From Halarcobacter sp. (lineage in GTDB: Bacteria; Campylobacterota; Campylobacteria; Campylobacterales; Arcobacteraceae), in assembly GCA_048571215.1 (NCBI GenBank), contig CP182352.1:992001-1056000 (forward strand): 64,000 bases of DNA, given 5' to 3'. Made by a program: the position numbers and the translations under genes. The notes below the pieces were generated by a model that ran no database searches, had not been told where the DNA came from, and saw nothing but the letters and a program-made list of their open reading frames with translations. Below are positions 3,702 to 18,858 of the stretch, piece by piece (positions within the stretch are counted from its first letter, which is position 1; the number at the start of each line of letters is the position of its first letter).

Positions 3702-3951
3702 TAACTATCCATTCTAAAAAAATTAAGCGGGCATTATAACATAATAAGCTATTAAAACAATGGGTGTTTTAATATATAAATATATAATTTAAAAAAAGTT
3801 AAATTTATATGTTTTTTAATTACTTAAAATTAGTAATTTTTCAACAAATTATAACTAGAATATAATATTTTAATAACTTCCTTACAATCAATGTGCTAGT
3901 ATATATGAAAATAATATTGGATTATAATAACTATATCTAAGGTGATTGCTA

Positions 3952-4320
3952 ATGGGTAAAAAAATATTAATAGTAGATGATTCTTCTATGATGAGATTGG
4001 TTGTTAAAAAAGCAGCTGCAAAAGAGGAATATGAAGTTATTGAAGCAGCTGATGGGAAAGAGGGCTTAGAGCAACTTCTAAAACATAATGACATATCTTT
4101 AATTTTAAGTGATATTAATATGCCAGTTATGGATGGTATGGAGATGGTTTCTAAGATTAAACAAAATGATGCTTTAAAATATATTCCAATTGTTATGCTT
4201 ACAACTGAAAGAAGTAATGAAGCAAAAGAGGAAGGTAAGCAATTAGGGGTAAAAGCTTGGATGGTAAAACCTTTTAATGAAGCAACCTTTATAAAAGCTA
4301 TGAAAAAACTAATTGGATAG
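3952..4320 (+). CDS. cheY: Chemotaxis response regulator CheY
   Basis: Stand-alone receiver (VDDS, SDINMP, LTTE, VKPF); ATG 3952 follows AAGGTG; first gene of the che operon. Confidence 0.88.
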   Translation: MGKKILIVDDSSMMRLVVKKAAAKEEYEVIEAADGKEGLEQLLKHNDISLILSDINMPVMDGMEMVSKIKQNDALKYIPIVMLTTERSNEAKEEGKQLGVKAWMVKPFNEATFIKAMKKLIG

Positions 4321-4323
4321 ATA

Positions 4324-4599
4324 GTGAAAATAGAGTTTGATGAGTTAACTATTAGTGAAGCTGAGGCTTTTTATAAATTATTAACTGAAAATATAGATAA
4401 TTTGGAGAATAACGAACTGACTTTAGATTTTAATGATGTTGAAAAAATAGATTTAAGTTGTGTTCAGGTTTTATTTTCACTTAAAAAGTTTTGTACTAAT
4501 ACGAATATTAATTTATCATTTACTAATCTTCAATCTAAGCAACTACAAAAAACCATAAAAACATATAATTTAGAAAAACTTTTAGGGCTTACTCAATGA
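4324..4599 (+). CDS. STAS-domain protein
   Basis: ELTISEA...LTLDFNDVEKIDLSCVQVL is a STAS signature; lies between cheY and cheA. Confidence 0.85.
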   Translation: MKIEFDELTISEAEAFYKLLTENIDNLENNELTLDFNDVEKIDLSCVQVLFSLKKFCTNTNINLSFTNLQSKQLQKTIKTYNLEKLLGLTQ

Positions 4600-6635
4600 C
4601 AGAAGAGATTCAACTATTTTTAGAAGATATGGATGAACAGCTCTCTTATATGGAAGAGGCTCTTTTAGATTTAGGTGAAGGTTCATTAGAAGATATTGAT
4701 GAGGAGTTAGTCAATAAACTATTTAGATCAATGCATACTATGAAAGGTAATGCAGGGATTTTTGGATATGAAATAATAATTGAACTAGCCCATCTATCAG
4801 AGAGTTTATTAGATGAAATTAGAAATAGAAAAATATCTTTAAACGATGAGATATTAGAGCTTCTTATGCTTGTAAATGATCACGCTAAGGTTTTAGTTGA
4901 GCTTTGTACAAGTGGAAAGAGTTTAAATAAAGAGCAAAATGATATACATCAAGATTTATTAGTAAGATTATCTAACTTTTTAGATGAAGAGGTAGATTTT
5001 TCTATTGATGAAGAACAAAACTTAGTTTCTTGTAAATATCATATTGAAGTAAAACTAAAAGATGATTTTTTTGTTTCTGGTATGGATATGTCTTCAATCA
5101 TAAAATATTTGGATTCTATTGGGGATGTAAAAGATGTAAGTATAAAAGATGGGTCTATTCCTCCATTAAATGAGTTAAATCCTTTGAAATCTTATCTAAG
5201 TTTAGAAATCTTATATAATACAAAAGAGCCAATTAGTGAAATAGAAGAGGCTTTTGAATTTGTTGAAGAGGATATAGAACTAAAGATTGAAAAACTTGAA
5301 AACTCTTTTGAAGATGAAACTTCTTCAACTCAAAAAGAGTTTCAAGTTTTTAAAAAACCATCTAAAAATAAAGTAGTAGAAAATAAAAAAGAACTAGATT
5401 CAGATTTTAGAGTATTTAAAAAGTCAAAAAAAGTTGAAGCTGAAAAAAAGGTGCCAAGTTCTAATGGCTTTACCCTAAGAGTTGACTCTACAAAAGTAGA
5501 TAGATTGATAAATCAAATTAGTGAGATGGTAATTGCAAATGCAAAAATTACTCAATATTCACTAAAAAGTAATGATACTGATTTTGAAGAAGCAGTTACT
5601 GTTATGTCAGAGATGCTTGAAGAGATTAGAAATGGTATTATGAATATAAGAATGGTTCAAGTTGGAGATTCTTTTTCTAAGTTAAGAAGGGTAGTAAGTG
5701 ATAGTGCCAAAAAAGTTGGCAAAGAGATAGGTTTTGAGATAATAGGAGGGGAAACAGAGCTTGATAAAACTGTTATTGAAAAAATCTTTGATCCCTTAGT
5801 ACATATGTTAAGAAACTCAGTAGACCATGGTATAGAATATCCTGAAATTAGAGAAGAAAAAGGGAAACTAAAAAAAGGAAGTATTATTTTAAAAGCCTTT
5901 CCTGATTCGGGTTCTATTGTTATTGAGATTATAGATGATGGAAATGGTATCAATAAAGATGTGATTTTAAAAAAAGCTATAGAAAAAAACTTAATAAAAC
6001 CCAATGAGCATTTAAGTGATGAGGAGATACTCCATCTAATATTTTTGCCAGGTTTTTCTACAGCCCATGAGATTTCTAATATCTCTGGACGTGGTGTAGG
6101 AATGGATGTAGTAAAAAGAAATATTGAAGATTTAAGAGGTAGTGTTGATATAGAAAGTACTTTGGGTGTAGGTACAACTTTTACTATAAGGCTTCCTTTG
6201 ACTTTAGCAATTATTGATGGATTTTTAGTTCAAGTTGGTAAATCAAAATATATAGTACCTTTAGATAATATACAAGAGTGTATAGAGTTAAATCAAAAAG
6301 CAAAAGAGCAGATGAAATCAAAAGGTTATATTACACTTAGATCACATATTTTACCTATTTTGGATATTGCAGAGCATTTTGAAGAAGATAAATGTGAAAA
6401 TATAAGACAAAATATAGTTATTGTACAATATGGAAAATCTAGGGTTGGATTAAAAGTGGATGAGCTTTTTGGAGAGTTTCAAACAGTTATAAAACCTTTA
6501 GGTGATCTTTTTGAAAATATTTCAGGAATTTCAGGTGGTACAATTTTAGGAAATGGAGAAATAGCACTTATATTTGATGTGCAAAAATTGATTGAACATA
6601 AAATAACGCATAAGGATAATAAAAATGGAAATTGA
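4596..6635 (+). CDS. cheA: Chemotaxis histidine kinase CheA (no fused receiver)
   Basis: Hpt LFRSMHTMKG, N-box HMLRNSVDHG, G-boxes DDGNG and SGRGVGMDVV, C-terminal CheW-like domain. Confidence 0.96.
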   Translation: MTEEIQLFLEDMDEQLSYMEEALLDLGEGSLEDIDEELVNKLFRSMHTMKGNAGIFGYEIIIELAHLSESLLDEIRNRKISLNDEILELLMLVNDHAKVLVELCTSGKSLNKEQNDIHQDLLVRLSNFLDEEVDFSIDEEQNLVSCKYHIEVKLKDDFFVSGMDMSSIIKYLDSIGDVKDVSIKDGSIPPLNELNPLKSYLSLEILYNTKEPISEIEEAFEFVEEDIELKIEKLENSFEDETSSTQKEFQVFKKPSKNKVVENKKELDSDFRVFKKSKKVEAEKKVPSSNGFTLRVDSTKVDRLINQISEMVIANAKITQYSLKSNDTDFEEAVTVMSEMLEEIRNGIMNIRMVQVGDSFSKLRRVVSDSAKKVGKEIGFEIIGGETELDKTVIEKIFDPLVHMLRNSVDHGIEYPEIREEKGKLKKGSIILKAFPDSGSIVIEIIDDGNGINKDVILKKAIEKNLIKPNEHLSDEEILHLIFLPGFSTAHEISNISGRGVGMDVVKRNIEDLRGSVDIESTLGVGTTFTIRLPLTLAIIDGFLVQVGKSKYIVPLDNIQECIELNQKAKEQMKSKGYITLRSHILPILDIAEHFEEDKCENIRQNIVIVQYGKSRVGLKVDELFGEFQTVIKPLGDLFENISGISGGTILGNGEIALIFDVQKLIEHKITHKDNKNGN

Positions 6636-7476
6636 AAAAATATTAGGAGATAGAGACCTAATTGTTAGTTCAACAGATAAGAAAGGTTTTATAACCTATG
6701 TAAATAGTACATTTAGTGAAGTATCAGAATACACAAAAGATGAATTATACGGAAAACCTCACAATATAATAAGACACCCTGATATGCCAAAAGCTATTTT
6801 TGAATATGCTTGGAAAAACTTATTAGATCATAAACCAGTTGTTGCTTATGTTAAAAATTATATAAAAGGGAAAAAACAATATTATTGGGTAAAAGCTGTA
6901 ATGTATCCAAAGGTTATTAATAATGATATAGATTCAATCACTTCATATAGAACCAAAGCAACAAGTTTTGAAGTACACCAAATCAAAGAGATATATAAAG
7001 TTTTAATAGAGTATGAAAAAACTCACAATGCTCAAGAGTCTTTAGCCTATTTTATTGAATACTTAAAAGATAAAAGCCTTTCATATGATAAGATGATAAA
7101 TAGATTAAATGATAATAAACAAGTATTAAATAAAGCCTTGTTAAATATAGATATTACAAAATACAGAACAGATCATAAGATTTTTAGAAGTAGAATTGAA
7201 AGTTTAGTTGAAAAAGGGTTTGAAAATATAGAGATTAAAAAACCAACTTGTTGTAATTTTGGTAAAAAACTAGCTGAACTTGAAGATGAACCATTTGCAA
7301 AAGATAGTAAATTTTTAGAAATTAAAAAAGTACATAATAGAATTCATGCTAAATTAGAAGAGTATGTAAATGCAGATGAAACAAATAGAGGTATACATAT
7401 GAATGAAGTTTATAAAGATATAGATAAGTTGTTTGGTATAGTTGAAGATTTACAAAATGATCATAAATATGAATAG
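6625..7476 (+). CDS. Aer/CetB-type FAD-binding PAS domain fused to a CZB zinc-binding domain
   Basis: N-terminal IVSSTDKKGFITYVN...GKPHNIIRHPDMP (Aer PAS); C-terminal DH...CCNFG...HNRIH (CZB His/Cys/His/His pattern). Confidence 0.8.
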   Translation: MEIEKILGDRDLIVSSTDKKGFITYVNSTFSEVSEYTKDELYGKPHNIIRHPDMPKAIFEYAWKNLLDHKPVVAYVKNYIKGKKQYYWVKAVMYPKVINNDIDSITSYRTKATSFEVHQIKEIYKVLIEYEKTHNAQESLAYFIEYLKDKSLSYDKMINRLNDNKQVLNKALLNIDITKYRTDHKIFRSRIESLVEKGFENIEIKKPTCCNFGKKLAELEDEPFAKDSKFLEIKKVHNRIHAKLEEYVNADETNRGIHMNEVYKDIDKLFGIVEDLQNDHKYE

Positions 7477-7507
7477 TATTAAAAGATGTGAGCTTAAAGG
7501 TTAAAAA

Positions 7508-9202
7508 ATGGGAAAAATTAAAATAGACGAAAAAGAGTTTGATAAAATACTTAAAGCGTTAGATGATATCGAAGATGGTAAGTTTGATATTTCATTAAAA
7601 TCTGATGATAAAAAAGTATCAAAACTAGTGGATAAAATCAATAAGATAGCAAAAGAGATGGGTAATATGGAGATACATGCAAAAAGGATGTATGATGAAG
7701 TTGCCCAAGGTAATATGGATTATAGAGTTGATTCTAGAAATTTCCATAATGGATATGAAAATATTTTAGAGTCAATAAACTCAATGGTTGATGTTCCTGT
7801 TTCTGCTATTAGAGATTTTAATTATGCTATGACAAAACTTTCAGGTGGTGATTTTGATTCAAGAGTTTCAAATAACTATTTAGGAGAGTTTGAAGATATG
7901 AAATACTCATTTAATGCTATTTCAAATATCTTAAGAGATATACAAAATGATAGTTATATGTTAAATCAAGCTGCCCTTAGTGGACAATTAAGCATTCAAG
8001 TAGATAAATCAAAATATTATGGTGATTTTGCAATTATAATTGAAACTATTAATAACCTTACTATGGTTACAAGAAATGTTTTTAATGAAACTATTTTTGG
8101 TCTTAGAGCTTTACAAAGAGGTGATTTTGATTCACGAATTCATACAGAATATAAGGGTGATTTTGATATTGTAAAAGAGTCTGTAAATAATACAGCAGAG
8201 ATATTAACTAGGTTTATAACTGATATTGGAAGTTTAAATGAAGAGGCTTCAAATGGTAATTTGAAAGCTAAAATTGATGAAAGTGTATATACTGGTGGAT
8301 ATACAGAAGTTGCACAGGGGATTAATAGTTTTTCTTCAAAAGTTGAACAAATAGTAGATACTGTTAAAACTGCATCAACAGAGGTTTTAGTTGCAGCAAA
8401 TATTGTAAATAAATTGGCCCAATCTATATCAGCTGGTGCAGAACAACAGGCAAGTTCTTTAGAAGAGACTACAGCTTCAATTGAAGAGATTAGTGCAAAT
8501 ATTTCTGAAACAGCAAAAAATGCCACTAGAACAAGTCAAGTTGCTGAGGTAACTTCTGGGGTTGCTAAAAAAGGTGGTGAATCTGTAGCTCAAACGGTCG
8601 AAGCTATGAATATAATATCTGAAAAAATCATTATTATTGAAGATATTGTTTATCAAACAAATCTTCTGGCACTAAATGCAGCAATTGAGGCTGCACGTGC
8701 AGGGGAGCATGGGAAAGGATTTGCTGTAGTTGCAGCTGAGGTTAGAAAACTAGCCCAACGTTCAAAGGTTGCAGCTGAAGAGATAAGTAAAATCATAAAA
8801 AATAGTGTGGGTATATCAAAAGAAGCTGGGGAGTTAATCCAAAGTTTAATCCCACAAATTAGTGAAACTGCAAACTTAGTAACAGATATTTCGGAAGCTT
8901 CAAAAGAGCAAGAGATAGGTATAGAGCAAATTAATGTTGCAATGAGTGAATTAGATTCTGTAACACAAACCAATGCTAATGCTTCTAGTGAATTATCCTC
9001 TTCAGCTGAAGAGTTAGATGCCCAAGCAGGAGAACTTAGTAAAATGATGTCCCATTATACAACATCAGGTACAGATAAGTCACCTTTAAAAATACCATCT
9101 ATGGATTTAAGTGATATAGAAGTAAAGGTTTTTGATAAGAAAAAAGATGAATCAGAAGATAATGAAGAAGAGATAAATCTTAGAAATTTTGAAAGATTCT
9201 AG
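7508..9202 (+). CDS. Cytoplasmic methyl-accepting chemotaxis protein with poly-HAMP chain and C-terminal pentapeptide
   Basis: [34 protein letters not shown] hairpin tip; about six GxFxxR...N HAMP-like repeats; no transmembrane segment; ends NFERF. Confidence 0.93.
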
Positions 9203-9210
9203 GAATATTT

Positions 9211-9690
9211 ATGGAAAATATAAATTCAAACTCTACAAAACAATATCTAATTTTTGTTTTAAATAATGAAAAATATGCAACAAAAGCAGATAATGTTCAA
9301 GAGATTGTGGATTTTATGAATATAAGAAGAGTTCCAAAGTCAAACCCCTGTGTAAAAGGAATAACCAATGTTAGGGGAGATTTGATTGCAGTTGTTGATC
9401 CTAAAATTAGATTTGGAATTGGTAGTATAGATATTCAAAAGAGGACATCATTTATTATATTTAATATTTTAAATAATAAAAAACAAACTATTTTATCAAT
9501 TGCTTTAATGGTAGATATGGTAATTGAAGTTGATGATATTTTGCCAGAAGATATTTTACAAACTCCAGAGTTTGGCTCTAAAATTGAGCAAAAATATATT
9601 GAGAATATAATTAGATTTGATGATGAATATATTACTGTTTTAGATATGGATATGGTTTTAAATATTCCAGAGTTATCGCAAATAAGTTAA
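9211..9690 (+). CDS. cheW: Chemotaxis coupling protein CheW
   Basis: YLIFVL..E.YA, VPKS..CVKGITNVRGDLIAVVD. Confidence 0.92.
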   Translation: MENINSNSTKQYLIFVLNNEKYATKADNVQEIVDFMNIRRVPKSNPCVKGITNVRGDLIAVVDPKIRFGIGSIDIQKRTSFIIFNILNNKKQTILSIALMVDMVIEVDDILPEDILQTPEFGSKIEQKYIENIIRFDDEYITVLDMDMVLNIPELSQIS

Positions 9691-9699
9691 GGATTTTTT

Positions 9700-10638
9700 T
9701 TGGAACTTGAATATAATGACGATTTAGATAACAATGATGATTTAGATTTACTTGAATTGATTACAAGTGATTCAAGTACTACAAATAAGTATTTAGTATT
9801 TGAAGGCTCTAATAAAGAGTATTATGCAATAAATGTTGCAAAAGTTATTGAGGTTTTAGTTTATAAAGACCTAAAAATGGCAAAAAATGGTAGTAGTGAA
9901 AGTATTATTAGAGCAACTGCACAAATTAGAGATGAAATGGCTACTATTATAAACTTTGATCAATGGTTTGGAAATGAAGTTTTAGATGATAGTGAATACG
10001 AATATGTTATTCTAGCAGGTTTTGGTGGATACAATTTGGCAATTATGATAAAAAGTGTAGAGTATATTGTAAGTATTGATTCTAAAGATATGAAAGATAA
10101 CTCAATGAATAATCCAAAGACAAATTTTATCTCTGATATAAAATTAAATGGGGAGCATAAACTTTGTACAGTTTTTGATTGTGATAAATTACTTTTAGAC
10201 ACCTTTGAAGATGTTGGCAAAAAAAACAATCTTGAAAAGATTGAATATAAAAAGAATATAAATAGTGATAAACTTGTACTTTTTGCAGATGATAGCAGGT
10301 TTATAAGAATAACTGTACAAAAACTTTTGGAGAAACTTGAATTAAGATATAAAATCTTTGATAATGGTTTAGCGTTACTAAATGAGATTAAAACATTAAA
10401 CCCAAGTGATATTGGCTTGGTTATTACAGATTTAGAGATGCCAATAATGGATGGTAATGAGCTTGTAAAGAGTATCAACGAACTTGATGGTTATGAGGCA
10501 ATAAGTATTATAGTACATACAAATATGAGTAACTTTATAATGAAAAGTTCATTGACTAAATTGGGAGTTGATGAAGTGATTGCAAAAATAGATATGAATC
10601 AGTTATCTAAAGGGATTAGTAAGTATTTTATTCCATGA
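9700..10638 (+). CDS. cheV: CheV-like protein (CheW plus receiver)
   Basis: YYAINVAKVIEV CheW-like N-terminus; C-terminal receiver FADDS...TDLEMP; TTG start after AAGGA. Confidence 0.82.
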   Translation: MELEYNDDLDNNDDLDLLELITSDSSTTNKYLVFEGSNKEYYAINVAKVIEVLVYKDLKMAKNGSSESIIRATAQIRDEMATIINFDQWFGNEVLDDSEYEYVILAGFGGYNLAIMIKSVEYIVSIDSKDMKDNSMNNPKTNFISDIKLNGEHKLCTVFDCDKLLLDTFEDVGKKNNLEKIEYKKNINSDKLVLFADDSRFIRITVQKLLEKLELRYKIFDNGLALLNEIKTLNPSDIGLVITDLEMPIMDGNELVKSINELDGYEAISIIVHTNMSNFIMKSSLTKLGVDEVIAKIDMNQLSKGISKYFIP

Positions 10639-11441
10639 AAAAAGATATTATAGAATTAAGTGATAAAGAGTTTGAACTTTTTCAAAAGCTTGTATTTAGT
10701 GAAATAGGGGTTTTCTTAGGGAACTCAAAAAAACACTTAGTAAAAAATAGATTATTAAAACAGCTAATAAAGTATGAATTAAACTCTTATAGTGATTATT
10801 TTAGATTAATACAAGTTAAAAAGAGTGAAAAAACTGTAATGTTAAATTTAATCACTACAAATGAAACATATTTTTTTAGGGAATATAGCCATTTTGAGTT
10901 TTTGCAAGAATATATTATATCAAAACAAAAAAACAATAATATTCGTGTTTGGAGTGCAGCAAGTTCAGTTGGTGCAGAGGCTTATAGTGTTGCAATGATG
11001 TTTGACAATGAGAATTTAAATTTTGAAATTGTTGGTAGTGATATAAATACAGAAGTTGTTAAAAAGGCTAATGTGGGTTTATATCCTATAAAATGGATGG
11101 ATAAAATTCCAGATGAACTTAAATTTAAATATTGTTTAAAAGGAAAAGGTAGCCATGAGGGGTGGTTTTTAGTTGATAGATGTTTATTAAAATATATGAA
11201 ATTCCAGCAAAGAAATCTAATAGAAGAACAGGGTGATTTAGGTTTGTTTGATGTAATTTTTTTAAGAAATGTATTAATATATTTTGATGATGAAACAAAA
11301 GAAAAAATTGTAAAAAATGTACTAAAGAATTTAAAAAGAGGTGGTTATCTAATCATCTCTTTAACAGAACATATTTATAATTTAGATAAGTATGGTTTAC
11401 AAAAAGTGCAAAGTTCTATATTTCAAAAGGTAAGTAGATGA
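10635..11441 (+). CDS. cheR: Chemotaxis methyltransferase CheR
   Basis: TTNETYFFRE, RVWSAASSVGAEAYS, FDVIFLRNVLIYFD. Confidence 0.95.
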   Translation: MKKDIIELSDKEFELFQKLVFSEIGVFLGNSKKHLVKNRLLKQLIKYELNSYSDYFRLIQVKKSEKTVMLNLITTNETYFFREYSHFEFLQEYIISKQKNNNIRVWSAASSVGAEAYSVAMMFDNENLNFEIVGSDINTEVVKKANVGLYPIKWMDKIPDELKFKYCLKGKGSHEGWFLVDRCLLKYMKFQQRNLIEEQGDLGLFDVIFLRNVLIYFDDETKEKIVKNVLKNLKRGGYLIISLTEHIYNLDKYGLQKVQSSIFQKVSR

Positions 11442-12238
11442 AAGATTTAAAAGTTTTAGTAGTATCAAGTAAGGGTGGAGTAGGGAAAAGTACAGTTTCA
11501 ATGCAAGTTATAGCACCTTTTTTATATGAACAAAATAGTAAACAAACTGTATCTTTTTATGAGTTTGATGATGAAAATATAGATTCCCTTAGTTATGGGG
11601 GAAGTAATCTAACAAAAAGAGAATCTATTGATGTTGAAGAGTTTGTTATTATGGACAAATTTATGGAGATACTTTCTAAAGATGAATTTGCATGTATTGA
11701 TGTTGGAGGAAATAAATCAACAAGCTTATGTTTAGATACCTTGAATGATTCAGGAATGATAAGTCAAATAGATTTAGCTGTAATTCCCCTTTTAGATGGA
11801 GAACAAGATGCTATAAATGCAAAAAGTGTTTATAAAAGATTAAAAGAGTTTGATTCTAGTATAAAAATCGCTTTTGCTTTAAATAGGGTAAAAAATCAGA
11901 AATTTGTAAAATATCAATTTGATAATTTCTTTGGAGATATTAGAGAGATTTTTAGTGATGAAGATGCTGTTATTAATATAATCAAAGAGGATGAAAAAGA
12001 GAACTATTTTTGTATAGAAGATGGTGATATTATAAAATATAGTAGAAAATTTGGAATGACAATTTATGAAATAGCTGAACAAGAAAGGGATTTTATATCA
12101 GAATTTAAAGATGCTAGTGAAGAGAAAGCTAGAAAATTAATAGCTTTTAAGAATTATGTTTACCAAAATGGTAAAAAGTATTATGAAAGTGTATTGAAAA
12201 ACGCTTTTAAAAAACTAGATACAATAATAAAAGGATAA
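11438..12238 (+). CDS. ParA/MinD-superfamily P-loop ATPase
   Basis: Deviant Walker A KGGVGKST, Walker B-like CIDVGG, ALNRV; coupled to cheR by an ATGA-type overlap. Confidence 0.75.
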   Translation: MKDLKVLVVSSKGGVGKSTVSMQVIAPFLYEQNSKQTVSFYEFDDENIDSLSYGGSNLTKRESIDVEEFVIMDKFMEILSKDEFACIDVGGNKSTSLCLDTLNDSGMISQIDLAVIPLLDGEQDAINAKSVYKRLKEFDSSIKIAFALNRVKNQKFVKYQFDNFFGDIREIFSDEDAVINIIKEDEKENYFCIEDGDIIKYSRKFGMTIYEIAEQERDFISEFKDASEEKARKLIAFKNYVYQNGKKYYESVLKNAFKKLDTIIKG

Positions 12239-12241
12239 GAT

Positions 12242-13135
12242 GTGATTAGTAACGTTTCAAATAAAGTATCTCTTCTTGCAGCTAATTCAAATATACTAGT
12301 TGTGGGTAATGTAAGTGAACAAATACACAATATGATTGATATCTCATTTTCAAATAAAGAGTTTTTTGATATCACTGCTGATTCATTAGAGATATTTAAT
12401 AACTCTTTGTTTGAACAGTTTGATATTGTTATAATCTCTTTTGATAGATATAGTTTTGAACTCTTTGAAAAGAATAATATAACAATACCAAAAGGGGGGA
12501 TTTATATTATTGAAGATGATGTGTATATTGATTTTAAAAAATATATAAATATCTCTTTTGCTACTCTTTTATCACCTATTGATGAAGATACCTTACTTTA
12601 TAAAATATACGCACGATTAGCAATAATAGAAACAAATGGATTTTTAAAAACAAAAGAAAAAGTTTTAAATAAATATAAAAACGATAGTATAAATAATGAG
12701 ATTGATACCTTCTTAGATCAATATAGTGGTAGCATCATGTTTATTAATGATGATTTAAATGATAGTTTAAAACGTTTAAAAGATTTAGAAATATCAAAAG
12801 AGGTGTTTTCAGATATTTCAGCTAACTTAGTTGAACTATCAAATATATTTGCTCAAAATAAAAAATTAGATCAATTATCTACACTCTTCTTAGAGTTTAG
12901 TCAGTTTTTAAACTCTTTGGATTTTGAGTCAATTGAACCATCCAGATTTGAAGCTTTTGATTATTTGACTACAATTGTTGAGGAGACAACTTTATATATT
13001 GATGAGCTTTTTGTATATAGACTTTTTAAAGATGTATCAGTTTTTGAGTATTCTATAGCAAACAACATCGAATACTTTGAATCAAAACTGTTTGGAAATG
13101 ATGAAAAAAATGAAGATAATTTGGAGTTTTTCTAA
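12242..13135 (+). CDS. Hypothetical protein (possible degenerate receiver plus helical bundle)
   Basis: 297-aa ORF inside the che operon, AAGGA RBS, stop overlaps cheB start; acidic tail DEKNEDNLEFF. Confidence 0.7.
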   Translation: MISNVSNKVSLLAANSNILVVGNVSEQIHNMIDISFSNKEFFDITADSLEIFNNSLFEQFDIVIISFDRYSFELFEKNNITIPKGGIYIIEDDVYIDFKKYINISFATLLSPIDEDTLLYKIYARLAIIETNGFLKTKEKVLNKYKNDSINNEIDTFLDQYSGSIMFINDDLNDSLKRLKDLEISKEVFSDISANLVELSNIFAQNKKLDQLSTLFLEFSQFLNSLDFESIEPSRFEAFDYLTTIVEETTLYIDELFVYRLFKDVSVFEYSIANNIEYFESKLFGNDEKNEDNLEFF

Positions 13136-14160
13136 TGATAAAAGTATTTATTATTGATGATTCAATGCTTATAAGAAATAGTATTAAAAAGATTTTAAAA
13201 AATGAAAAAAATATTATACTAATAGGGGAGGCACAAAACCCTGTTGATGCAATAGATGAACTTAAAAAAGTTGGTTTCCCTGATGTGTTTATTTTAGATA
13301 TTGAGATGCCTAAAATGGATGGAATTAGTTTTTTAAGAAAATTAAAAGAGCAAAAACCAATACCAACAATAGTATTCTCTTCAATCGTAGGAAACAATTC
13401 AACAAAAGCTATAGAAGCTTTAGAGTTTGGTGCATGTGAAGTTATAGAAAAACCAATAAATATGAATAAAATTGATAAAGATGATTTTGTAGATGAGTTT
13501 ATACAAAAAATAAAAGCAGCATCAAAATCAAAACATGTTGAGAATGATGTTATAATTAATAAAAATACAAGTAAAACAAATCTACTAGCAAGTAAAGTAA
13601 TTGCATTGGGTGCATCAACAGGTGGTGTTCAAACTATTGAAAATATTATTACAAACCTAAATAAAAACCATCCACCAATTGTGATAACACAACATATGCC
13701 AGCTGGATTTACAAAATCTTTTGCAAAGAGATTAAATAATATTTGTCCAAATTCAACTGTAGTAGAGGTGCAGGGTGATGAACTTTTAGAAGTATCTTGT
13801 GTTTATATTGCCCCTGGGAACTTGCATTTGGAAATAGAAAAAATAAGTAAAGGTAAATATAAGGCTATTTTAAAAGATTACCCAAAGGTTTCTAATCATA
13901 AACCAAGTGTAGATGTACTTTTCAAATCTGTTGCAAAAGAGGCTAAAAATGACTCAGTAGCTTTTATTCTAACAGGTATGGGTAAAGATGGAGCAAATGG
14001 AATAAAAAAGATTAAAGATGCAGGTGGAAGAACTTATGGTCAAGATGAAAATAGTTCAATAGTTTATGGCATGCCAAAAGTTGCATATGAGATGGATGCT
14101 ATTGAAAAACAAGTAAATCTTAATGAGCTTGTTGAGATAATAAATTCTATTGATAAGTGA
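13135..14160 (+). CDS. cheB: Chemotaxis methylesterase CheB
   Basis: Receiver (IDDS, LDIEMP) plus esterase triad motifs GASTGG, TQHMP, GMGKDG. Confidence 0.96.
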   Translation: MIKVFIIDDSMLIRNSIKKILKNEKNIILIGEAQNPVDAIDELKKVGFPDVFILDIEMPKMDGISFLRKLKEQKPIPTIVFSSIVGNNSTKAIEALEFGACEVIEKPINMNKIDKDDFVDEFIQKIKAASKSKHVENDVIINKNTSKTNLLASKVIALGASTGGVQTIENIITNLNKNHPPIVITQHMPAGFTKSFAKRLNNICPNSTVVEVQGDELLEVSCVYIAPGNLHLEIEKISKGKYKAILKDYPKVSNHKPSVDVLFKSVAKEAKNDSVAFILTGMGKDGANGIKKIKDAGGRTYGQDENSSIVYGMPKVAYEMDAIEKQVNLNELVEIINSIDK

Positions 14161-14161
14161 A

Positions 14162-15088
14162 CTAAACTTTAGCTAAAATAGATTTATTTCTCCCTTTATC
14201 TTTTGCTTCATATAAAGCATAATCAGCTCTTGTGATAGTGTGTTCTATATTGTCACTATCAAGTTCTAAATCAAATTGTGCTATTCCAAAACTTGCAGTA
14301 AATTTTATTATATCTTTATTTTTTGTAATAATTTTACTCTCTTCAAGTCTTATTCTAATCTTTTCTGCAACATCAAATCCAGCCAAACTATTACTATTTT
14401 GAAGAAGAACAACAAACTCTTCACCTCCAAAGCGAGCAACCACATCACTGCTTCTTACAGCTTTCTTAAGTTCACTTGCTACTTTTTTGATCACATAATC
14501 ACCAATTAAATGTCCATAGGTATCATTTATATTTTTAAATTTATCAATATCTAAAACTATTATCGCGATATTTTGATTATTTCGTTTTGCTAAGGATTTA
14601 ATTTTTTCTGATTCTTCTTTAAAATATCTTCTATTATAAAGATGAGTTAGAGGATCACGATGTGACATATCTTCCAATTCTTTATTTAGCTTTTTTAGTT
14701 TTGCATTGGTTTCACAAAGGCTAGTATGGTTATAAATATAGATACATACTTGTTCTTTTTCAATATCATAAGGTACTATTGTTACACTTTGTTGCATAGA
14801 GGTAAAAGTGGTATTAATAATATTATTTAAAGGTATTTCTATCAAAAAATGGTGAGGATCTATTGAATAAAAGGATGGGTTTTTTGTAATTAGTACAGAT
14901 TTTATTTTTCTTTGTAATCTTTTTTTATCTACATAAGTAAAGAGTTCACAAAAATTTTTACCTATAACTTCCTCTTCATATTTTTTTGTAAATAGTTCAA
15001 GCCAATTATTCCAAGCTAAAATATTTAACTCTTTATCTAAAATAACAATTCCATTATCAACTGTATTAAAGATCACACTATCTATCAT
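14162..15088 (-). CDS. PAS-containing diguanylate cyclase
   Basis: DPLTHLYNRR, DIDKFKNINDTYGH, RxxD I-site (RSSD), RFGGEEF. Confidence 0.93.
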   Translation of the reverse strand: MIDSVIFNTVDNGIVILDKELNILAWNNWLELFTKKYEEEVIGKNFCELFTYVDKKRLQRKIKSVLITKNPSFYSIDPHHFLIEIPLNNIINTTFTSMQQSVTIVPYDIEKEQVCIYIYNHTSLCETNAKLKKLNKELEDMSHRDPLTHLYNRRYFKEESEKIKSLAKRNNQNIAIIVLDIDKFKNINDTYGHLIGDYVIKKVASELKKAVRSSDVVARFGGEEFVVLLQNSNSLAGFDVAEKIRIRLEESKIITKNKDIIKFTASFGIAQFDLELDSDNIEHTITRADYALYEAKDKGRNKSILAKV

Positions 15089-15092
15089 TGTT

Positions 15093-15713
15093 TTAATACT
15101 CTTCTAATACGATATTAAGAGCTTTCTTAAGATATATAGAAGACTCTTTATTTGTCATAACAACAAGTTCACCATTTATTTGTTGATCCTCAAATTTAAG
15201 TTGGGTAGATATTATTATAATATTTTCATAGTTACATTGAAACTGCTTATTAAATTCACTTAAAGAGTCAAAAAAGCTAACTTTTGGAGATGAAAAGGAG
15301 ATTGAAGCTTTAATCAAGTCTGCAAGTTTTGCTGAAGTTGTAGAAGATAAGATATTTGTTATTTCTAATACTATATCTTTTATCTCATTTTCATCGATTT
15401 CATCTTCATCTAAATCAAACTCTTTTGCCAAATTTTTACTAGATTTACTATCTATAATAAATAAATTTTCACCTGATATTTGGCCATTTATTAATTGGCT
15501 TGCCATATAAAAAGAGTTATTAGTTACTAGACTTTCGATTAAATGTTCTTTTAATTTAGTTGCGGATATTGTTTCAATTTTTGGTATCCCAAGAGTTGCG
15601 AATTTATCAATAATTTTTGATACAGCAGCAGTCGCTGAAGCAAATGAGATATTCATCAATTCTTGTAAGCAATCTCTTTCATCTTCATTTAATCTGATTT
15701 GATTCTTGTCCAT
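15093..15713 (-). CDS. cheC: CheC-family phosphatase
   Basis: Two ExxN motifs (DCLQELMNIS; DIVLEITNIL). Confidence 0.82.
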   Translation of the reverse strand: MDKNQIRLNEDERDCLQELMNISFASATAAVSKIIDKFATLGIPKIETISATKLKEHLIESLVTNNSFYMASQLINGQISGENLFIIDSKSSKNLAKEFDLDEDEIDENEIKDIVLEITNILSSTTSAKLADLIKASISFSSPKVSFFDSLSEFNKQFQCNYENIIIISTQLKFEDQQINGELVVMTNKESSIYLKKALNIVLEEY

Positions 15714-15715
15714 TT

Positions 15716-16081
15716 TTAAAGTAAGCCTAGTTCTTCCATCATAGATTTTAAGTTATTTGCATCAATAGGTTTTTTTATAAAACCCATAGCTCCACTTTCT
15801 TGTGCTTTTGTTAAAGAATGTTCTTGGATATCAGCACTTACAATAATTATTTGTGCATCTGGATTTATACTACATATTTCTTTTGTTGCTTCAAATCCAT
15901 TTACTTCAGGCATAGTTAAATCCATAAAACATACTTCAGGATTATAAGTTTTATAGTATTCTATTGCTTCTTTTCCATTTGTAGCTTCAATAACCTCAAA
16001 CTCTTTATTTATTACCGCTTTTAAACTTTTTATTGTCATCTTTCTAGCAAGTTTTGCATCGTCTACTACTAAATATTTCAT
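15716..16081 (-). CDS. CheY-like single-domain response regulator
   Basis: VVDD, FMDLTMP, VSAD, KKP; start ATG 16081 (or TTG 16084). Confidence 0.9.
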   Translation of the reverse strand: MKYLVVDDAKLARKMTIKSLKAVINKEFEVIEATNGKEAIEYYKTYNPEVCFMDLTMPEVNGFEATKEICSINPDAQIIIVSADIQEHSLTKAQESGAMGFIKKPIDANNLKSMMEELGLL

Positions 16082-16302
16082 CAATTTTTCCTATTACAAA
16101 TAATGTATATATGCTATCTAAAATCAGCTTAACATAACTATTAATAGTATTAGTGTTTTAATTATTTATTAATTATTTTAATTTTGTAACATGTGTAAAA
16201 ACTTGTAATATTGTAAATAAATATCAAAATAAACTTACTTTTATATGAATAATTAAACAATCATACGCTATTTTATTGTTTAGATTATAATAAGGGTGAA
16301 TA

Positions 16303-18858
16303 TTGGATATTGTAAATAGTTTTGAAATAGAAGATGAAATTTTATATTATTATGACTTAAATAAAGTAATAAGTAAAAATTTAAAATTAAAAAAGTTACC
16401 TATTGTATTAAAAATACTTTTAGAATCCAATCTCAGAAAAGTAAACAATAATGAAGAGTTTGAAAATATAATTAATATTTTTTCAAATAGATTAAACCAT
16501 AAAATTGGTTTTTATCCTTCTCAAGTTATATTACAAGAGTTTACAGGGATTCCTGCTTTAGTTGATTTAGCATCAATGAGAGAATCAATAAAAGACCAGG
16601 GTGGAGATGTAAGTAAAATAAATCCTCAAATCTTAGTTGATTTAGTTATTGACCAATCCTTAAACACTACAAATATAGGTTCTATTGACAATTCTATAAA
16701 CAATACAAATAAAGTACATTTATCATACAAGCAAGGATATGAGTTTGTTAAATGGGCACAAAATACATTTTCTAATTTTAGAGTAGTTCCCCCAGGTTCA
16801 GGAATTTGTCATCAAGTTAATTTAGAATATTTATCAACAATTCTGCATGTAGAAAAAATAGAAGATAAGTATTTTTTATATCCAGAAACAATACTTGGTA
16901 CAGATTCTAACACTACTTTGATAAACTCTTTGGGTGTTTTAGGATGGGGAGTTGATAGTATAGAAGCACAAAGTGCTATGTTGGGTTTACCTATGTTTTT
17001 AAATCTACCTAAGGTTGTTGGTATTAATCTACATGGAGAGTTAAAAGAGGGAATCAATTCTACTGATTTGGTACTAACCCTAACAAAAAAATTAAAAGAG
17101 CATGATGTTACAGATAAATTAATTGAGTTTTATGGAGAAGGCTTAAGGTATTTAACTTTAGAAGATAGATCCACTGTTTCAAATATGGCTCCAGAATATG
17201 GTGCAAAGTGTTCTTTCTTTGCCATAGATAATCAAACAATATCATACTTTAATAAAACAAGAGATAATGAAAATTATGGAAAATTGATTAAATCATATTT
17301 ACAGAAGCAACATCTATTTTATGATGATAATGAAATATTAGATTATGATGAAGTGATTGATTTAGATTTATCCACCCTAGAACCCACAATTGTGGGACCA
17401 AAACGAGCCCATGATAGTGTTGATATAAAAACTTTAAAAGATATAGTTATAACAAAAGAATCAAAAGATTTAAAAGATGCAGATATTGTAATAGCTGCTA
17501 TTACCTCTTGTACTTCGTCTTCAAATCCTTACCTTTTAATTCACGCTGCATTGGTTGCTAAAAAAGCTCATGAATTTGGACTACATATAAGTGAACATAC
17601 AAAAGTTTCACTTGCACCAGGTTCTTTAGTAGTAAAAGAGTATTTAGAGAAGTTAGGCTTACTTAAATATTTAGAGATATTAGGTTTTCATATAGTTGGG
17701 TATGGGTGTACTACTTGTTATGCAAATCAAGGTACTTTAGATGAAAATTTAGAAGAACAAATAAAAACAGATAATTTAAATGTTTGTTCAGTTAGTTCTG
17801 GAAATAGAAATTTTGAGGCTAAGATGAACCCTTTAGTTAAATCAAATTATTTAATGTCTCCCTCTTTGGTAATAATTTATTCATTAATAGGAACTATGAA
17901 GTTTGATTTATTTGAAGATGTTATTGGTGTGATTGATGATAAAGATATATATTTAAGAGATTTATGGCCTACAAACAAAGAAGTAGGGGAGTATATGCAA
18001 AAACTCGATTATACTTTATATAAAGAGATATATAAAGATATATTTAAAGGTGATAAGTTTTGGCAAGATTTAAAAGTAGAAAAATCTGATACTTATAATT
18101 GGGATATAAACTCAACTTATATTCAAGCTTCAAAACTATTTGAAGATAAGGATACAGAAAAAACAGATATTAAAAATGCTCAAATTCTTGCTTTGTTTGC
18201 AGATAAGATTACAACAGAATATATTTCACCTTTAGGACAAATATCTTTATACTCTCCAGCTGCTAAATATTTAGAGAGTAAGGGAGTTAAATCTTTTGAG
18301 TATAGTACTTTTGCAAGTAGAAGAGGAGATGCAGAAGTTATGACAAGAGGAACTTTTGATGATAATAGAATACAAAATGCAATGGTAACAAAAGAGGGTG
18401 CTTATACTATGGATTATGAGACAAATGAGATTGTCTCAATCTATGATAAAGCTATGAAGTTTAAAAAACAAAATATACCTCTTGTGATATTTGCAGGGGA
18501 AGAGTATGGTAAAGGTGATTCAAGGGATTGGGCAGCAAAAGGAACAAAACTACTTGGCATAAAAGCAATAATTGCAAAGTCATTTTCAGAACCCCATAGA
18601 AAAAACCTAATAGAGTTTGGTGTTTTACCTTTACAGTTTATTGATGATGATATAAAGAGCTTAAAACTAAAGGGGAGTGAAAGTATCACAATTGAATTTG
18701 ATGAACTAAAGGTAGAAAGTAAGGTTTTAGCAACTATACATAAAAAAGATTTAGATATAAAAATCGAGTTGAGATGTAGAATTGATACTTTAACAGAGCT
18801 CAATTTTTATAAAAGTGGTGGGGTATTATCTTATTTGCTAAATGAAATGATAAAATAA
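16303..18858 (+). CDS. Aconitase A / IRP-family protein with substituted catalytic residues
   Basis: Colinear with AcnA (GICHQVNLE, NMAPEYGA, AAITSCT, GYGCTTC, SGNRNFE, SRDWAAKG), but DHS>DQS, DSHT>DSNT, GSSR>GDSR. Confidence 0.88.
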   Translation: MDIVNSFEIEDEILYYYDLNKVISKNLKLKKLPIVLKILLESNLRKVNNNEEFENIINIFSNRLNHKIGFYPSQVILQEFTGIPALVDLASMRESIKDQGGDVSKINPQILVDLVIDQSLNTTNIGSIDNSINNTNKVHLSYKQGYEFVKWAQNTFSNFRVVPPGSGICHQVNLEYLSTILHVEKIEDKYFLYPETILGTDSNTTLINSLGVLGWGVDSIEAQSAMLGLPMFLNLPKVVGINLHGELKEGINSTDLVLTLTKKLKEHDVTDKLIEFYGEGLRYLTLEDRSTVSNMAPEYGAKCSFFAIDNQTISYFNKTRDNENYGKLIKSYLQKQHLFYDDNEILDYDEVIDLDLSTLEPTIVGPKRAHDSVDIKTLKDIVITKESKDLKDADIVIAAITSCTSSSNPYLLIHAALVAKKAHEFGLHISEHTKVSLAPGSLVVKEYLEKLGLLKYLEILGFHIVGYGCTTCYANQGTLDENLEEQIKTDNLNVCSVSSGNRNFEAKMNPLVKSNYLMSPSLVIIYSLIGTMKFDLFEDVIGVIDDKDIYLRDLWPTNKEVGEYMQKLDYTLYKEIYKDIFKGDKFWQDLKVEKSDTYNWDINSTYIQASKLFEDKDTEKTDIKNAQILALFADKITTEYISPLGQISLYSPAAKYLESKGVKSFEYSTFASRRGDAEVMTRGTFDDNRIQNAMVTKEGAYTMDYETNEIVSIYDKAMKFKKQNIPLVIFAGEEYGKGDSRDWAAKGTKLLGIKAIIAKSFSEPHRKNLIEFGVLPLQFIDDDIKSLKLKGSESITIEFDELKVESKVLATIHKKDLDIKIELRCRIDTLTELNFYKSGGVLSYLLNEMIK

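Follow-up and report, generated by a model that had tools for sequence, protein, structure and literature searches.

The locus and its aconitase-derived open reading frame

The window, i.e. the whole 64,000-nucleotide stretch of DNA analyzed in the current work, belongs to a host genome of 3.61 Mb with 28.5% GC and carries on its forward strand (16303..18858) a monocistronic open reading frame (ORF) of 851 codons, with a TTG start and without internal stop, which is convergent with a tauE-like gene and specifies an AcnA-derived protein of 851 aa, here named pseudo-aconitase. Its start codon is preceded by a Shine-Dalgarno-like AAGGGTG (16292..16298, forward strand), similar purine tracts being present in orthologues, and by a conserved upstream element (16252..16275, forward strand) which represents a putative extended -10 promoter of the sigma-70 type (TTAAA-N-TG-N-TATTTT type) and is the top-scoring site of its motif in the own genome. 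The motif total over 56 upstream regions was 935 as compared to 418-436 in three shuffles, the kin included not being independent; the element is located 40-70 bases upstream in most regions, and about six of the 56 are without a clear site. Judging from this pattern, the element presumably acts as a promoter. A promoter scan gave 27 sites as compared to 21.3 in shuffles and was uninformative, and a scan of the genome with the promoter motif revealed no coherent regulon. One RNA run, consisting of contigs only, covers all 30 bins of a 16-kb stretch, and because every bin is covered it says nothing about transcription.

In relatives, the gene is usually found in divergent orientation to uvrA and in convergent orientation to tauE-cysE-speA-hisS, with synteny across genera, and no conserved same-strand neighbour was found in the Arcobacteraceae loci examined. 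In the window, a 12-kb chemotaxis cluster separates uvrA from the pseudo-aconitase gene, these two genes being adjacent in many relatives. This chemotaxis-type cluster (3946-16084), in which gene names were mostly obtained by reading ORFs, has the order receiver, STAS-like, cheA, PAS, MCP, cheW, cheV, cheR, ParA/StbB-like ATPase, 297-aa protein, cheB, PAS-GGDEF, CheC/CheX-like, receiver. The ORF of the 297-aa protein (12242-13135, forward strand) has no Pfam or NCBIfam match and adjoins the StbB/ParA-like ATPase (11438-12238).

The initial annotation had asked for a separate acnB, and the same genome indeed contains an intact AcnB, in addition to an intact AcnD, whose gene sits in a prpB-prpC-acnD-prpF arrangement (operon names by reading ORFs), and two LeuC-like genes. 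The second LeuC/HacA-like large subunit (G000 C1:2896851-2898104, reverse strand) is encoded away from leuC at 2842581 and has next to it a gene for a small subunit and one for a divergent LysR-like regulator. Close homologues bear the source names Arcobacter and Halarcobacter, by which the genome is assigned to Arcobacteraceae. Elsewhere on G000 C1, the motif scan showed one 24-base stretch five times near 1507869-1510857 (forward strand) with spacings of 561 and 933 bases, which points to a repeat array, and the ORF list contains, near 3223898 (reverse strand), an open frame about 12,400 codons long.

The protein encoded in the window passes the NCBIfam cut-offs for AcnA (986.8 against 945 for TIGR01341; 1018 against 686 for NF006757), and both the ORF and these cut-offs agree with its initial description as an uninterrupted AcnA-family frame with three cluster cysteines. 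In a tree it nests among AcnA, not AcnD or AcnB, with 44-48% identity to canonical AcnA. It thus shares with AcnA/CitB (TIGR01341, NF006757) both cut-offs and the four-domain fold, but differs in that the catalytic His, the catalytic Ser and several substrate residues are replaced, in that its clade loses cluster ligands, and in that it models open. With AcnD (2-methylisocitrate dehydratase, TIGR02333) it shares the fold and 36% identity, but the AcnD cut-off is failed, the prp operon context is absent at this locus and a separate intact acnD is present in the prp operon. Since the curated cut-offs are passed, pseudo-aconitases are misannotated as aconitate hydratase in databases, which affects metabolic reconstructions.

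The catalytic residues of aconitase are His101 and Ser642. In an alignment to human IRP1, the DH histidine, which we take to be His101 in mitochondrial numbering, corresponds to Q118 (CAA, 16654..16656), the DSH histidine to N203 (AAC, 16909..16911), the second Arg of RNFEGR to K507 (17821..17823) and the first Ser of GSSR to D739 (GAT, 18517..18519), a position occupied by Asn in IRP2; Glu-Tyr is present where TTDHISP has DH. The three cluster cysteines, C403 (TGT, 17509..17511) and C469 plus C472 (17707..17718, with TGT at 17707 and at 17716), are retained in the Fe-S-binding domain 3 (about residues 361-565; 17383..17997), and domain 4, the swivel (18163..18855), contains E639-Y640 (for DH), S642-P643, R674, R689 and R741-D742-W743, all of these features being on the forward strand. 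All six codons originally quoted (16654, 16909, 17509, 17707, 17716 and 18517) are therefore in place and in frame, and the proposed loss of both catalytic residues is confirmed. The PDB title 'S642A:citrate complex' (1c96) agrees with the role assigned to Ser642.

The motifs NFEAK, TTEYISP, GNRNF and SRRG were found in the protein. In 85 canonical AcnA the altered columns do not vary, apart from a single residue in a single sequence, so that the catalytic changes are not due to chance. Only the R>K exchange counts in the reported NFEGR>NFEAK change, because G>A also occurs in canonical AcnA of relatives (NFEAR). The protein has nine of 13 core residues (changes include H>N, R>K and D>E), and the full substrate-binding set (His, four Arg, Asp) is not complete; when examined as an active aconitase A, it lacks the catalytic His (DH) and Ser (GSSR) and has the three cluster cysteines. 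A sequencing error in the window was considered and is unlikely, the identical protein being on record on two contigs and several of the changes recurring in orthologues.

Spread, selection and erosion of the family

Orthologues were retrieved from 58 of 184 family genomes, representing eight of 22 genera and 23 of the 25 genomes of the own genus, and the gene was not found in the other 126. Outside the family, 333 genomes of the class gave no clade-level match at E<=1e-140, three matches being at 37% identity, which is the AcnD level. The family members fall into a single clade (77 sequences, support 1.0, stem 0.57) and the gene is inherited vertically in Arcobacteraceae. Of the 184 family genomes, 173 yielded AcnB, and nearly all carriers of the gene also have AcnB; the consulted part of the A. 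butzleri genome paper lists only acnD and acnB (PMC2147049). Two genomes of one genus (G054 and G082) have, besides pseudo-aconitase, AcnD and AcnB, a fully canonical AcnA at another site (L038 3679-6327 and L039 3636-6284, both on the reverse strand), which groups outside the pseudo-aconitase clade.

The 58 copies comprise 54 complete open frames, one open frame truncated where its contig ends, and three broken ones, namely two with a frameshift (G036 and G507) and one without its 5' half (G053); the G507 assembly is 81%-complete, and the neighbours of the gene are split there as well. Nei-Gojobori dN/dS values over 21 close genome pairs (one genome being used twice) ranged from 0.06 to 0.34 with a median of 0.19, as compared to 0.11 for AcnD (16 pairs), 0.085 for TauE (12 pairs) and 0.12 for a canonical AcnA pair. 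As dN/dS is low in 21 of 21 pairs, purifying selection maintains the gene, at about half the stringency seen in the controls. The pN of cleft codons is slightly above that of the rest (0.099 versus 0.078). A test for pseudogene status was negative, dN/dS not being near 1 and frames being mostly open, and frames have stayed open across a tree with about 24 substitutions per site. The view that this is not a decaying gene therefore holds (55 of 58 copies have open frames), and of the two properties for which orthologues were to be examined, purifying selection is present but the catalytic substitutions are not uniformly shared, several of the changes recurring and their columns being subject to drift.

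This drift was followed in an enlarged set of 84 members, which includes some near-duplicates and excludes three fragments and two late loci. None of the 84 has all 13 core residues, as compared to 40 of 40 canonical sequences; three members (P0004, P0005 and P0012) have 12 and, judging from these residues, could be weakly active. Across 74 near-full-length members, the column of the catalytic Ser holds Glu (23), Lys (19), Val (8), Ser (4), Asp (4), Asn (4), Thr (4) and six other residues, and that of the catalytic His holds Asn (22), His (19), Asp (13), Gln (7), Tyr (7) and others. Clade-wide, His is retained at the Q118 position in 24% and at the N203 position in 43%, and the cluster cysteines are retained in 65% (C403), 50% (C469) and 15% (C472). 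Under a loss-only model the third Cys was lost about ten times on the tree, and the Ser about 12 times. Furthermore, a contig of metatranscriptomic origin, with 99% identity to the window, has AGT (Ser) at 18517-18519; this is one contig at a depth of 4.5, in which an error is possible, though exactly the canonical residue is restored. Such free drift of the catalytic columns, together with the Ser-bearing strain, indicates that the changes are mostly lineage- or strain-level drift, so that neither their description as targeted nor the importance attached to an Asp in the carboxylate pocket can be upheld. The cleft motifs are conserved at about half of the canonical level, and outside the cleft conservation is at or above that level (residues 1-75, 176-200, 326-350, 551-600, 701-725 and 776-825).

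All three cysteines are retained in 12 of the 84 members, which correspond to two small subclades and two further sequences. The subclade of the protein under study (six sequences, branch length 0.87) retains the three Cys, the GxGCxxC loop and the Asn of GNRNF without loss, and the same applies to a separate four-member clade (length 2.13); in both, substrate residues vary. Since two subclades keep all three Cys, the cluster may still matter there. The protein encoded in the window is the most eroded of its own subclade beside the cysteines (S405, Y473-A474 and Q476).

In other relatives the Fe-S domain is dispensable. Three genomes have, beside tauE, one open frame without about residues 361-575 (G135, 622 aa; G144, 643 aa; G138, 671 aa), and P0136 and P0152 carry the same in-frame loss of domain 3, the domain-3-less forms being placed on three separate branches. 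The dN/dS of the domain-3-less pair G144/G138 is 0.34. The polar, clade-specific conserved residues F60, S178-T179, E195, D349, K697, D704, K759 and D783 are present in all three of the domain-3 deletions beside tauE, and domain 4, the linker and domains 1-2 constitute the part retained in all members read. An ESM Atlas search with a domain-3-less protein returned aconitase clusters only. The Fe-S ligands are, therefore, optional rather than the point of the protein.

An exhaustive profile search recovered further full-length degenerate AcnA outside the Arcobacteraceae clade. Nine of them form a clade of their own (support 1.0), two being named Alphaproteobacteria, and the sequence nearest to this clade, P0246 (674 aa), is also without domain 3. 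Among 71 genomes of one alphaproteobacterial order, 38 acnA loci were read, of which 27 are canonical and 11 degenerate, the latter being monophyletic. Fourteen loci were read with their flanks, and canonical and degenerate genes mostly occupy the same place, flanked by a DUF1036 gene and an AAA+ gene. At L330-L338 and L318 (order of G665), acnA, whether dead or canonical, is usually followed by a gene for a stand-alone ClpA/B-like AAA+ domain of about 292 aa, with the DUF1036 gene divergent; the product of this AAA+ domain gene is a possible partner of AcnA in this lineage. Citrate synthase was found in none of the 11 draft genomes with degenerate acnA and in 23 of the 27 with the canonical gene, a difference to which no statistic applies since the drafts are of untold completeness and one evolutionary event is concerned; Icd and AcnB were found in none of the four degenerate-acnA drafts tested.

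The polar cleft residues lost are the same in the two clades (Spearman 0.55 over 300 invariant sites), whose windowed conservation profiles are also similar (Spearman 0.73), with the highest values outside the cleft; the two clades may serve the same function. Two collection scans with the second-clade alignment gave loci of <=38% identity, which were taken as ordinary AcnA, and a 401-genome sample of the class contained no clear member of the second clade. Five full-length aconitases with degenerate active sites (P0162, P0197, P0207, P0227 and P0255) fall outside both clades and suggest more independent origins.

Predicted structure and RNA-contact residues

The AlphaFold model of the protein (pLDDT 85.9; weak at the Cys loops and at residues 119-134) resembles the RNA-bound open form of IRP1 (3snp/3sn2; TM 0.82, rmsd 4.2-4.5) rather than the closed form (0.68, 9.2), whereas a control, the canonical AcnA of a same-family genome modelled with an equally deep alignment, matches the closed form (0.94, rmsd 2.1) rather than the open one (0.61). 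This comparison involves one model per side and may reflect only the loss of cross-cleft covariation. The model suggests that the closing contacts of the cleft are gone, and does not say that RNA binds.

The contact residues compared here are those given in the consulted parts of PMC4184891, PMC4693282 and PMC3048577 for the IRE and of PMC11317140 for RNA-critical CitB residues. On these lists, none of the IRP1 loop contacts is kept, Arg269, Ser371, Lys379 and Asn439 corresponding to K265, V364, S372 and S405, and the C-bulge pocket (Ser681, Pro682, Arg713, Arg780, Asp781, Trp782) is kept in six of six positions. Across the clade, S642 (61/84), P643 (66/84), D/E742 (65/84) and W743 (79/84) of this pocket are frequent, and its arginines are present in 33/84 (Arg713) and 30/84 (Arg780); both are gone in 20 of 20 members of the alphaproteobacterial clade. 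The conserved S-P and D-W residues may be structural. At the Arg269 equivalent, three of 84 members have Arg and 60 have Lys. The equivalent of IRP1 Arg728 and B. subtilis Arg740-741 is R689, so that the CitB-critical Arg is kept in the protein itself; nine of 84 members have Arg here and 33 have Lys. The clade proteins are acidic (median pI 5.4). With the strict vertebrate pattern only, two IRE-like hairpins were found in the genome, versus 0-3 in five shuffles. Domain 3, which several members lack, forms part of the IRE loop cavity. By residues and hairpins the pseudo-aconitase would stand outside the IRP family, and it may still work like an apo-aconitase.

Its likeness to vertebrate IRP2 (IREB2), as put forward in the initial annotation, lies in being an AcnA-type paralogue without enzyme function whose base position is held by a residue other than Ser (Asn in IRP2); according to the consulted part of PMC3048577 IRP2 assembles no cluster, which makes the comparison a mixed one for an Fe-S sensor. 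Pseudo-aconitase differs further in being bacterial and of independent origin, in lacking conserved IRE contacts and the 73-aa insert, in having a domain 3 that is losable within the clade, and in that its RNA binding is putative. RNA binding by cluster-free aconitase is documented for B. subtilis and S. aureus (PMC11317140) and for H. pylori (PMC8322730), and the cluster-free open state of apo-IRP1, B. subtilis and S. aureus CitB and H. pylori aconitase appears to be the best structural match of the model (TM 0.82). These moonlighting aconitases are working enzymes that switch, whereas in pseudo-aconitases the enzyme side is lost and few members keep the CitB RNA-critical Arg.

A probable non-catalytic role for pseudo-aconitase and its alternatives

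We consider it very probable that pseudo-aconitase is non-catalytic and under selection. Because the active site drifts while the rest is conserved, the protein probably works by binding something. It would be an AcnA-derived pseudoenzyme, AcnB and AcnD taking care of the enzymatic work; with the cleft-closing contacts gone it would rest in an open, apo-like shape. Domains 1, 2 and 4 together with the linker would then serve to bind a macromolecule, so that what is a second, moonlighting activity in AcnA would have become stand-alone and mostly iron-independent. RNA appears to be the likeliest ligand, considering the documented second function of cluster-free aconitases and the fit of the open state, in which case the protein would act as a post-transcriptional regulator, not via the classical IRE contact set. 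In the subclade of the protein under study, the three cysteines may still take up a cluster and close the protein, the loops around them eroding in this particular member, and a residual Fe-S switch is possible in this sublineage. Taken as a whole, this reading (non-catalytic, selected, RNA-binding) is the best we can offer, and we put it at a little under an even chance.

A doubtful but serious alternative is that the ligand is a protein (or DNA) held on the outside of domains 1, 2 and 4, the pseudo-aconitase being a non-catalytic scaffold, chaperone or regulator. Such a role would suit the conservation peaks outside the cleft in both independent clades, the survival of clade-specific polar residues in the domain-3 deletions, the acidic pI and the loss of cleft arginines, and an AcnA-IDH integrative model exists (title of PDB 9a4j). 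However, no partner was identified and no conserved same-strand neighbour accompanies the gene in Arcobacteraceae, partners from the TCA cycle are improbable for the second clade at any rate (citrate synthase in 0/11 and Icd in 0/4 drafts), and the conserved residues could be purely fold-stabilising.

The initial annotation favoured a dedicated Fe-S iron/oxidant sensor, in which an essential cluster gates the regulatory output. The two clades that keep three Cys while their substrate residues vary hint, post hoc, at selection on the cluster, but the Cys-keeping subclade of the protein under study is simply the least diverged, and this protein has changes beside the Cys where model confidence is also low. 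For the family as a whole such a role is improbable, as the full set of cysteines is kept in so few members, the third Cys was lost repeatedly, and domain 3 is deleted in relatives in which the gene is still under selection.

A residual or altered hydro-lyase, i.e. a weak aconitase or an enzyme with a new substrate, is less probable still: the nine core residues of the protein, the 12 in three other members and the Ser at the base position of the near-identical strain would speak for it, but no catalytic column has a conserved replacement, which also removes the basis for the new chemistry initially suggested, the changes are for the most part conservative exchanges of a single step (H>Q/N/Y, R>K, D>E), as would be expected from drift in an AT-rich genome, and most members lack cluster ligands. 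That a redundant gene is slowly being lost, which would be compatible with a dN/dS about twice that of AcnD and TauE, a patchy presence and three broken copies, is the most improbable reading of all and for the most part refuted, given a dN/dS far below 1 in every pair, frames kept open throughout the tree, a conserved promoter-like element and in-frame deletions that cleanly remove one domain.

Dead aconitase paralogues are known in animals (IRP2) and bacterial aconitases moonlight; to our knowledge, engineered mutants have so far been the only means of separating the second function of a bacterial aconitase from catalysis. Among the titles and the beginnings of abstracts searched, none was found to describe a stand-alone pseudo-AcnA of bacteria. 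We tentatively propose that AcnA has a so far unrecognised function located on domains 1, 2 and 4, which may be independent of catalysis, of the Fe-S domain, of the classical IRE contacts and of TCA-cycle partners, which may have become separate from the enzyme on at least two occasions (in Arcobacteraceae and in one alphaproteobacterial order), and of which the natural three-domain forms of 620-670 aa could be the minimal unit. The pseudo-aconitase genes constitute a natural series of separation-of-function alleles, which runs from almost intact forms to those devoid of the whole Fe-S domain and arose at least twice, and they make the non-catalytic role of aconitase A, and the surface behind it, directly testable.
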